From the NCBI RefSeq assembly GCF_044647545.1, contig NZ_CP172818.1: DNA of 64,000 nt. One strand, given 5' to 3'. Below are positions 41,795-41,848 of the stretch, piece by piece. Position 1 is the stretch's first letter. Every line of letters begins with the position of its first letter. The stretch comes from Escherichia coli. GTDB taxonomy: Bacteria; Pseudomonadota; Gammaproteobacteria; Enterobacterales; Enterobacteriaceae. The notes under the pieces were generated by a model. The model made no database searches. It saw only the letters and a list, made by a program, of their open reading frames with translations, and was not told the DNA's origin. The translations under genes and the position numbers were made by a program.

Positions 41795-41848
41795 ATATCA
41801 GGTGTCAAGAATGGAGAGTTCTCGCTCTCCATTCTTGACACCTGATAT
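41795..41848. repeat. perfect 24-bp inverted repeat with 6-nt loop
   Basis: atatcaggtgtcaagaatggagag / ttctcg / ctctccattcttgacacctgatat, between ymgC and pdeG; no flanking U-tract. Confidence 0.85.

Follow-up and report, generated by a model that had tools for sequence, protein, structure and literature searches.

A long single-copy palindrome between ymgC and pdeG of Escherichia coli as a candidate 3′-end element of the ycgZ-ymgABC mRNA

What is the role of a perfect palindrome that lies between ymgC and pdeG in Escherichia coli? The question was raised by a preliminary description, made from the letters alone, of a 64,000-nucleotide stretch of E. coli DNA (RefSeq assembly GCF_044647545.1, contig NZ_CP172818.1), which we call the window and number from its first letter. 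The region 41300–42400 of the window is 100% identical to several complete E. coli genomes, including FDAARGOS_497 and ST648. Its genes run in the order bluR and bluF on the minus strand, followed by ycgZ, ymgA, ariR, ymgC, pdeG, and ymgF on the plus strand. The placement of the palindrome between ymgC and pdeG, as first described, is correct. The hairpin that it can form begins 94 nt past the ymgC stop (41700) and ends 183 nt ahead of the pdeG start (42032), and it is the sole strong local structure in the 331-nt spacer between the two genes. The equivalent position in K-12 MG1655 is 1217091–1217144, where the genome carries no annotation. The features to which we refer below are the following:

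40493–41700, plus strand: ycgZ-ymgA-ariR-ymgC operon; the hairpin would sit in the 3′ UTR of its transcript.
41452–41700, plus strand: ymgC, the last gene of the operon, upstream of the hairpin.
41701–41794, plus strand: 3′ untranslated stretch from the ymgC stop codon to the hairpin, 94 nt.
41795–41818, plus strand: left (5′) arm; its positions 8–14 form the mid-stem that varies in other E. coli (diversity of the arm, 0.13).
41803–41808, minus strand: mirror TTGACA, followed after a 16-bp spacer by TATTAA; unconserved, TTGCCC in B2-like alleles.
41819–41824, plus strand: spacer TTCTCG, whose outer U and G are able to pair, leaving the 4-nt loop UCUC.
41825–41848, plus strand: right (3′) arm, better conserved than the left; 41840 is A here and G in most E. 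coli.
41835–41840, plus strand: TTGACA, candidate −35 of pdeG with 6/6 matches; TTGACG in K-12.
41849–41900, plus strand: unstructured, U-rich stretch with more C than G directly past the hairpin; candidate Rho loading (rut) region.
41858–41863 (TTTATT, 17-bp spacer) or 41860–41865 (TATTTT, 19-bp spacer): possible −10 elements for pdeG.
42032–43555, plus strand: pdeG (ycgG), the downstream gene, which would be expressed separately if transcription stops at or after the hairpin.

The two arms (41795–41818, ATATCAGGTGTCAAGAATGGAGAG; 41825–41848, CTCTCCATTCTTGACACCTGATAT) are 24 nt each and 100% complementary across a 6-nt spacer, just as the preliminary description had it. Folding with ViennaRNA closes an extra U·G pair, giving 25 bp and a 4-nt loop. 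The minimum free energy (MFE) of the hairpin is −44.9 kcal/mol versus −12.9 ± 2.8 kcal/mol for shuffled sequences (z = −11.65), and none of 200 shuffles folds as well. The MFE structure also contains two weak outer C-G/G-C pairs, joining 41791–41792 with 41851–41852. With a stem G+C content of 42%, the palindrome is the longest, most perfect, and strongest inverted repeat of the 64-kb window. Its arms match the window only at their own two places with three mismatches permitted, where shuffled sequences lead one to expect no match. In a scan against Rfam 15, the best overlapping match was a chance hit to mir-4864, whose 20.4 bits (E = 1.2) fall below the gathering score of 100. We also considered a coding explanation, as a 50-codon open reading frame (41742–41894) spans the hairpin. 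This was rejected because a 4-nt insertion shifts the frame in about 1,700 genomes and K-12 has no gene annotated there.

The palindrome is real and unusually long; it is also single-copy and specific to E. coli. A miniature repeat element had been proposed as one possible identity, with a search of the genome for additional copies as the check, and the search refutes it. Of 5,426 complete E. coli genomes, 4,951 carry the 74-nt stretch around the palindrome, each at a single locus. Matches fall on a median of two “places” per genome because the palindrome matches itself on both strands, as local BLAST shows directly; the doubling is absent for imperfect alleles. Nothing beyond the home locus was found in E. 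coli genomes with a 30-nt arm query at E = 10. Neither 2.9 million viral contigs nor 100,044 species representatives contain an exact match to the 20-nt core of the arm; the latter set holds one genome per species, and its E. coli representative (GTDB) is without the locus. Phage matches span 18–22 nt only and are due to chance, while plasmid matches are copies of the chromosomal locus in non-mobilizable or chromosome-sized records. A target-site duplication was sought in the flanks (GTCCGCA before and CCCGCCT after the palindrome), which share no direct repeat beyond a 4-nt CCGC that is out of register. With the home locus alone found across E. coli, plasmids, phages, viral contigs, and species representatives, we rejected a repeat or mobile element of the REP/BIME, ERIC, or MITE kind.

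YmgC and the genes downstream of it have a similarly narrow distribution. All YmgC homologs that we found are from E. coli, and ymgC, ycgG, and ymgF have been described as E. coli-specific additions to a conserved bluR-bluF-ycgZ-ymgAB unit (Tschowri et al. 2012, PMC3509220). A copy of ymgC at 79% identity (L007/L008) adjoins ydcA-cybB-gapC, and its homology to the locus stops about 34 nt short of the hairpin. No outgroup for polarizing the changes described below was found: YmgC is confined to E. coli, the homology of the diverged ymgC copy ends too early, and the GTDB representative lacks the locus. The hairpin is still present in B2 strains in which the 5′ end of pdeG is deleted, an indication that it belongs with ymgC and not with pdeG.

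To describe natural alleles, we combined 78 metagenomic copies, recovered through a conserved anchor 119 nt downstream, with examples from complete genomes. Every unusual metagenomic allele that was rechecked also occurred in complete genomes. One allele (L059), with a garbled hairpin between flanks identical to K-12, is probably an assembly artefact and was left out. The hairpin persists in nearly all E. coli that have the locus, with all but three of the 4,951 matching genomes (4,948) keeping some form of it. The main types are:

K-12 type, about 3,000 genomes: right arm with GACGCC and one T·G at pair 9; MFE −44.5 kcal/mol.
Window type, 151 of 5,426 genomes: G to A at 41840, giving T-A at this pair and a perfect palindrome.
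L072/L091 type, 71 genomes: T to C in the left arm, giving C-G and thereby another perfect palindrome, distinct from that of the window.
L009/L092 type, which probably accounts for the 68 genomes of the 90–95% identity band: three wobbles plus one mismatch, folding at about −30 kcal/mol.
B2-like types, about 1,700 genomes: 7–8-bp base, internal loop, and 14-bp upper stem; −26 to −29 kcal/mol.

The perfection of the palindrome is limited to the lineage of the window strain; most E. coli carry one G·T pair or a more degenerate form. One allele (L090) has the flanking haplotype of the window lineage and keeps G at 41840, which shows that the A at this position is derived. The B2-like alleles differ in the left arm by T-to-G changes at pairs 9 and 11, in some cases by a G-to-A change at pair 8, and by a 4-nt insertion; no ectopic donor for these clustered changes was found within the window. 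The right arm of the same alleles has two C-to-T changes that create G·U pairs, and their spacer reads CGCTCG, with a C-G pair closing the loop. Within this class, seven E2348/69-like genomes convert pair 24 from G·U to A-U, and another allele (L042/L093) has one additional G·U. Insertion sequences were seen twice, an IS3 inside the hairpin of strain A29 and an IS1 about 21 nt downstream of the hairpin in L010.

Given its position just past the last gene of an operon, we asked how the hairpin relates to the end of the operon transcript. The preliminary description had judged that it is not a canonical intrinsic terminator and that no U-tract follows it on either strand. Both statements agree with our terminator scan, which found no site between 41300 and 42300, and the second needs one qualification. 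The 9 nt past the stem are CCCGCCTAA on the plus strand and TGCGGACAT on the minus strand, so that no U-tract abuts the stem, and a U-rich run (TAATTTATTTTAT) begins 7 nt past the stem on the plus strand. On Northern blots, ycgZ-ymgABC appears as one discrete polycistronic mRNA (PMC3509220, PMC5491885). Since no intrinsic terminator is predicted from 41300 to 42300, the 3′ end of this discrete mRNA must form in the ymgC-pdeG spacer, where the hairpin is, by structure prediction, the sole element able to stop 3′ exonucleases.

This arrangement resembles a class of transcript ends that has been described in E. coli. Rho-dependent transcripts end right after stable stem-loops without a U-rich tail; past these stem-loops C exceeds G and rut sites are found, and the stem-loops shield the RNA from PNPase and RNase II (Dar & Sorek 2018, PMC6061677). 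At our locus, 60-nt windows across 41815–41889 contain 16–18 C versus 4–6 G, and the MFE of 70-nt segments across 41820–41909 is only −0.3 to −5.9 kcal/mol. The stretch in which C exceeds G is short, at about 45–70 nt. In addition, ymgC mRNA is detectable and is not polyadenylated by PAP I, a behavior that in the same study went with the absence of a Rho-independent terminator (Mohanty & Kushner 2006, PMC1636475).

We consider the hairpin most likely to be an mRNA 3′-end element of a known general kind, previously undescribed at this site. In the form that we tentatively favor, with a probability of roughly 0.4, a 3′-UTR hairpin marks and shields the 3′ end of the ycgZ-ymgABC mRNA, which Rho would terminate, and separates this mRNA from pdeG. 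From the features above we infer that transcription reaches this point, that Rho acts there, and that the hairpin determines both where the mRNA ends and how stable it is. The hairpin would fold in the 3′ UTR of the operon mRNA. Because an adjacent U-tract is missing, it would not release RNA polymerase by itself, and transcription would continue into the unstructured, C-rich and G-poor stretch. Rho could load there and terminate ahead of pdeG, after which the 3′-to-5′ exonucleases PNPase and RNase II would trim the transcript back to the base of the hairpin. The product would be a defined, protected 3′ end of the operon mRNA, with pdeG insulated from BluR-controlled transcription.

An RNA-processing or stabilizing hairpin was among the roles first suggested, and it is the one best supported by the anatomy of the site, by weak strand-specific substitutions, and by indirect literature. 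No 3′ end is listed at K-12 positions 12170xx–12172xx in the term-seq data of Adams 2021, in SMRT-Cappable-seq, or in the TRS tables. This absence from published tables is weak evidence, as the operon is poorly expressed at 37 °C and the tables do not come from inducing conditions.

The natural variation bears on whether the RNA hairpin is under constraint. When the alleles are laid on a fixed structure of 25 pairs, 94.0% of cells are paired on the plus strand versus 87.2% on the minus strand; in the upper helix the values are 100 and 85.5%, respectively. Four pairs of the upper helix show variation on just one side, and every variant is a standard plus-sense pair (G·U or C-G). The RNA folds of B2-like alleles are 2–9 kcal/mol better on the plus strand than on the minus strand. 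Furthermore, at least three or four conversions of a wobble to a Watson–Crick pair have occurred: T·G to T-A (151 genomes), T·G to C-G (71), and G·U to A-U (7). Upper-stem changes that pair on the plus strand only, together with repeated wobble conversions, favor constraint on a hairpin in the plus-strand (ymgC sense) RNA. The indication is thin: it comes from few independent events (3–5), neither pairing nor covariation differs significantly from the shuffle controls, and the arms are no better conserved than the flanks. The left arm has a diversity of 0.13 and the right arm one of 0.049, against 0.03–0.075 for the flanks; the left-arm value is the highest among non-loop spacer segments upstream of 41991. 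All pair-breaking changes fall within positions 8–14 of the left arm, where roughly six changes and the 4-nt insertion disrupt the pairs in about 1,700 genomes. The hairpin has decayed to roughly the degree expected if a perfect ancestor had drifted neutrally.

The same data can be read without any function. Templated quasipalindrome mutation at hotspots, known from the work of Ripley and the Lovett laboratory, makes perfecting changes without selection. The palindrome could be non-adaptive, the product of an inverted duplication (for example by a fold-back template switch) followed by drift, with incidental effects on RNA. The duplication would then date to the time when the E. coli-specific ymgC-pdeG segment formed, or later, and the arms would now and then be re-homogenized by intramolecular templated mutation. 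We regard this explanation as credible, if on balance unlikely. In its favor, the arms are as diverse as the flanks or more so, the mid-stem is badly degraded in about 1,700 genomes, and the covariation statistics are not significant. The imperfect repeat of about 3,000 genomes has perfecting variants, and two of these are opposite transitions at one and the same T·G pair, exactly as templated correction predicts. The element is also confined to E. coli, within a region that is itself E. coli-specific (PMC3509220). Against it, the upper-stem substitutions suit RNA pairing on the plus strand and not on the minus strand, an asymmetry that is not expected from a purely DNA-level process, although only 3–5 events are involved. 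The internal loop of the B2-like alleles has stayed uncorrected in about 1,700 genomes, and the site, just past an operon with no other terminator, suggests function. If templated correction does operate here, the locus would be a natural, population-scale case of quasipalindrome concerted evolution in which one imperfect ancestor gave rise to two perfect alleles.

The palindrome also overlaps potential DNA-level signals. As had been pointed out, each arm contains TTGACA, which we find once per arm, at 41835–41840 on the plus strand and at 41808–41803 on the minus strand. A promoter for ycgG/pdeG of the form TTGACG-19-TATTTT has been predicted, and RpoD holoenzyme SELEX binding and an H-NS site were reported in the spacer between ymgC and ycgG (Shimada et al. 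2014, PMC3946193). The −35 of this predicted promoter falls inside the right arm. The right arm might provide the −35 of pdeG, and the palindrome itself may be an associated site of regulation, in a spacer bound by H-NS, or a by-product. We find this rather improbable as the explanation of the palindrome, in spite of several supporting points. The best σ70-like matches of the spacer (10/12) use the arm TTGACA, and diversity is lower in the right arm than in the left (0.049 versus 0.13). TTGAC on the plus strand is retained in all alleles but one, whereas its minus-strand mirror is lost in B2-like alleles, and the lineage-specific G-to-A change brings the −35 to consensus. However, no −10 with A at position 2 and T at position 6 follows this hexamer at 16–18-bp spacing (TTTATT, at 17 bp, lacks the A), so that a standard scan does not call the promoter. 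The candidate −10 is unconserved (TATTTT versus TGTTTA in B2-like alleles), the resolution of SELEX-chip is the entire spacer, and no transcription start of pdeG appeared in the literature searched. Above all, a −35 hexamer leaves 24 bp of symmetry unexplained.

For a protein-binding palindrome, likewise suggested at first, the 24-bp arms would greatly exceed known operator half-sites in length, and no other part of the spacer varies as much as the left arm. AAGAAT…ATTCTT in the arms resembles RcsB half-sites, but these are 18 bp apart and not abutting. The only regulators reported for the ymgC-pdeG spacer are H-NS and RNA polymerase, and the papers on SrsR, MarA, BluR, and ycgG2 are silent on it.

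The promoter and the mRNA hairpin are mutually compatible. A single derived G-to-A substitution at 41840 both perfects the hairpin (U·G to U-A) and turns the −35 from TTGACG into TTGACA. We also considered dual use, in which one 54-bp sequence acts both as the 3′ hairpin of ycgZ-ymgABC and as the −35 region of pdeG, together with a related possibility, that the arms are kept near-perfect by templated correction. Either is, in our estimate, quite improbable. If dual use were true, single substitutions would retune the mRNA hairpin and the pdeG promoter together.

The length of the stem makes cleavage by RNase III, as in lambda sib retroregulation, a real alternative fate. Cutting the 25-bp duplex would remove the 3′ protection and trigger decay of ycgZ-ymgABC, so that the mRNA would be destabilized and not protected as in the 3′-end reading. 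E. coli RNase III needs roughly two helical turns of duplex. The hairpin provides 24–25 uninterrupted base pairs with no bulge, above the threshold of about 20 bp, and its stem is much longer than that of terminator-type protective hairpins. Yet an internal loop breaks the duplex in B2-like alleles, and the literature that mentions both ymgC and RNase III reports no cleavage here; we consider this fate very unlikely. We give equally little credence to an atypical intrinsic terminator, in which the hairpin and its two outer pairs, followed by CC and then UAAUUUAUUUUAU, would release the transcript without Rho: the hairpin is extremely stable, its MFE structure includes the outer pairs, and five of the eight nucleotides from 41855 on are U, but the terminator scan is negative, CCCGCC past the stable stem would give a G/C-rich RNA–DNA hybrid, the U-rich run is interrupted in K-12 (UAACUUAU), and ymgC mRNA is not polyadenylated, unlike intrinsically terminated transcripts (PMC1636475).

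Returning to the 3′-end hairpin, its interest lies in the genes on either side. The ycgZ-ymgABC operon connects the sensing of blue light and of cold (BluF/BluR) with the Rcs system and biofilm formation, and the product of pdeG is a c-di-GMP phosphodiesterase; the end of the operon transcript and the insulation of pdeG were previously undescribed. If the hairpin determines both the 3′ end of this mRNA and its stability, natural alleles are expected to vary in the output of the operon or in how much transcription runs through into pdeG. They span the perfect form, the K-12 form with its one wobble, and a B2 form that is 16–17 kcal/mol weaker. Such a natural allele series may serve to test both the model of Dar & Sorek and quasipalindrome correction in wild populations. 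The finding is modest and local and adds no new class of element; it is useful for its natural alleles and because an RNA 3′ hairpin may overlap here with the promoter of the next gene.

Several known systems offer comparisons. Like REP/BIME, ERIC, and other palindromic repeat families or MITEs, the element is an intergenic palindrome that would be transcribed in a 3′ UTR and could stabilize the upstream mRNA. Unlike them, it is present in a single copy per genome, has no relative elsewhere, and shows no target-site duplication. With intrinsic terminators it shares a stable sense-strand hairpin downstream of an operon. It differs from them in having no U-tract (at least 5 U in 8, 0–2 nt from the stem; the tail here is CCCGCCUAA), a G+C content of 42%, a stem 2–4 times the usual length, and a transcript that is not polyadenylated. 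The ycgG promoter of Shimada et al. 2014 (PMC3946193) has its −35, TTGACG (TTGACA here), within the right arm. That promoter was predicted from sequence within a SELEX-chip peak, has a 19-bp spacer that is not optimal, leaves the symmetry unexplained, and, judged against σ70 promoters, combines a −35 near TTGACA with no matching −10 at 16–18-bp spacing. The lambda sib and RNase III retroregulation hairpins likewise place a long duplex in a 3′ region, where it can be cleaved to control the upstream message; the difference is that no sign of cleavage or of two transcript classes (terminated versus read-through) was found at our locus.

Quasipalindrome hotspots (e.g., in thyA and lacZ) are mutational phenomena in reporter genes, not functional elements. 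The locus resembles them in that an imperfect repeat (K-12) has natural alleles perfected in either direction. It departs from their templated, often multi-base changes in showing only single transitions, which ordinary mutation can also produce. The closest likeness is to the stem-loops of Dar & Sorek (PMC6061677). The dimensions of our hairpin are not terminator-like, the stem of 24–25 bp being much longer than those terminator-sized structures. Like them, the hairpin is highly stable, lies past the last gene of an operon with no U-rich tail, and is followed by an unstructured stretch in which C exceeds G.

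The spacer between ymgC and pdeG, which carries the 24-bp hairpin, is a recurrent target of IS insertion. Three loci from other E. coli genomes bear IS sequences in or near it:

L004 (strain A29), ~560-640: IS3, inside the hairpin (left arm and loop); ymgC is replaced
L010, ~2913-3680: IS1, ~21 nt downstream of the hairpin, in a genome other than A29
L011: IS1 insA fragment, immediately upstream of ymgC

The hairpin is also less conserved than a block further downstream, at window positions 41901-41990, which has a diversity of 0.035 and, with one other stretch, shows the lowest variability in the spacer. 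This block contains a short open reading frame:

41909 (ATG) to 41987-41989 (TGA): ORF of 26 codons, MEKILSSAWIFLMLSTMLSVDASASE

In strain A29, the ORF carries an in-frame deletion of 12 nt. The block could be a leader peptide, an element of the pdeG 5' UTR, or an unannotated small protein. B2-like genomes (L003) still carry the hairpin as well as the conserved block, upstream of a deletion that affects the 5' end of pdeG. In these genomes homology is lost ~40 nt before the ATG of pdeG (window ~41990-42031 and the pdeG 5' end), and pdeG is annotated as "missing N-terminus". This truncated pdeG is the ycgG2 allele, which has been studied in NMEC strains (PMC6385356).

Adams et al. 2021 reported antisense 3' ends within pdeG, on the minus strand at window ~43320-43435 (K-12 1218619-1218730), one of which is listed in their second supplementary table, taken here as the bicyclomycin (Rho) comparison. 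These ends point to antisense transcription into pdeG from the ymgF side. Within the operon, terminator prediction returned no terminator-like site in the ariR-ymgC spacer (window 41340-41451).

YmgC and the 20-nt core of the hairpin arm are each present in ~90% of complete E. coli genomes. Among the species-representative genomes, neither a tblastn match to YmgC nor a match to the arm core was found, and the E. coli representative in this set apparently lacks the ymgC-hairpin locus. A second gene resembling ymgC was identified elsewhere:

L007, 1-900, and L008 (GCA_017278115.1, SRR23027952): ymgC-like gene, 79% identity

Its neighbors are a truncated ydcA, cybB, gapC, and aldA, and it does not adjoin pdeG. 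Homology to the 3' flank of the window ymgC ends at ~41761, 34 nt short of the hairpin. This gene probably sits at a different chromosomal site, as a paralog or a transferred copy.

A separate palindrome lies in the spacer between bluF and bluR:

38813-38850: perfect 14-nt inverted repeat, ATACTTTGTACAAT-N10-ATTGTACAAAGTAT

The repeat, of which PMC3509220 makes no mention, is followed ~50-85 nt downstream by the GTG start of bluR. Both of its arms contain the TGTACA/GTACA motif, which has been reported in the operators of BluR and MlrA. At the bluR promoter, the repeat may act as an operator of the BluR or MlrA type.
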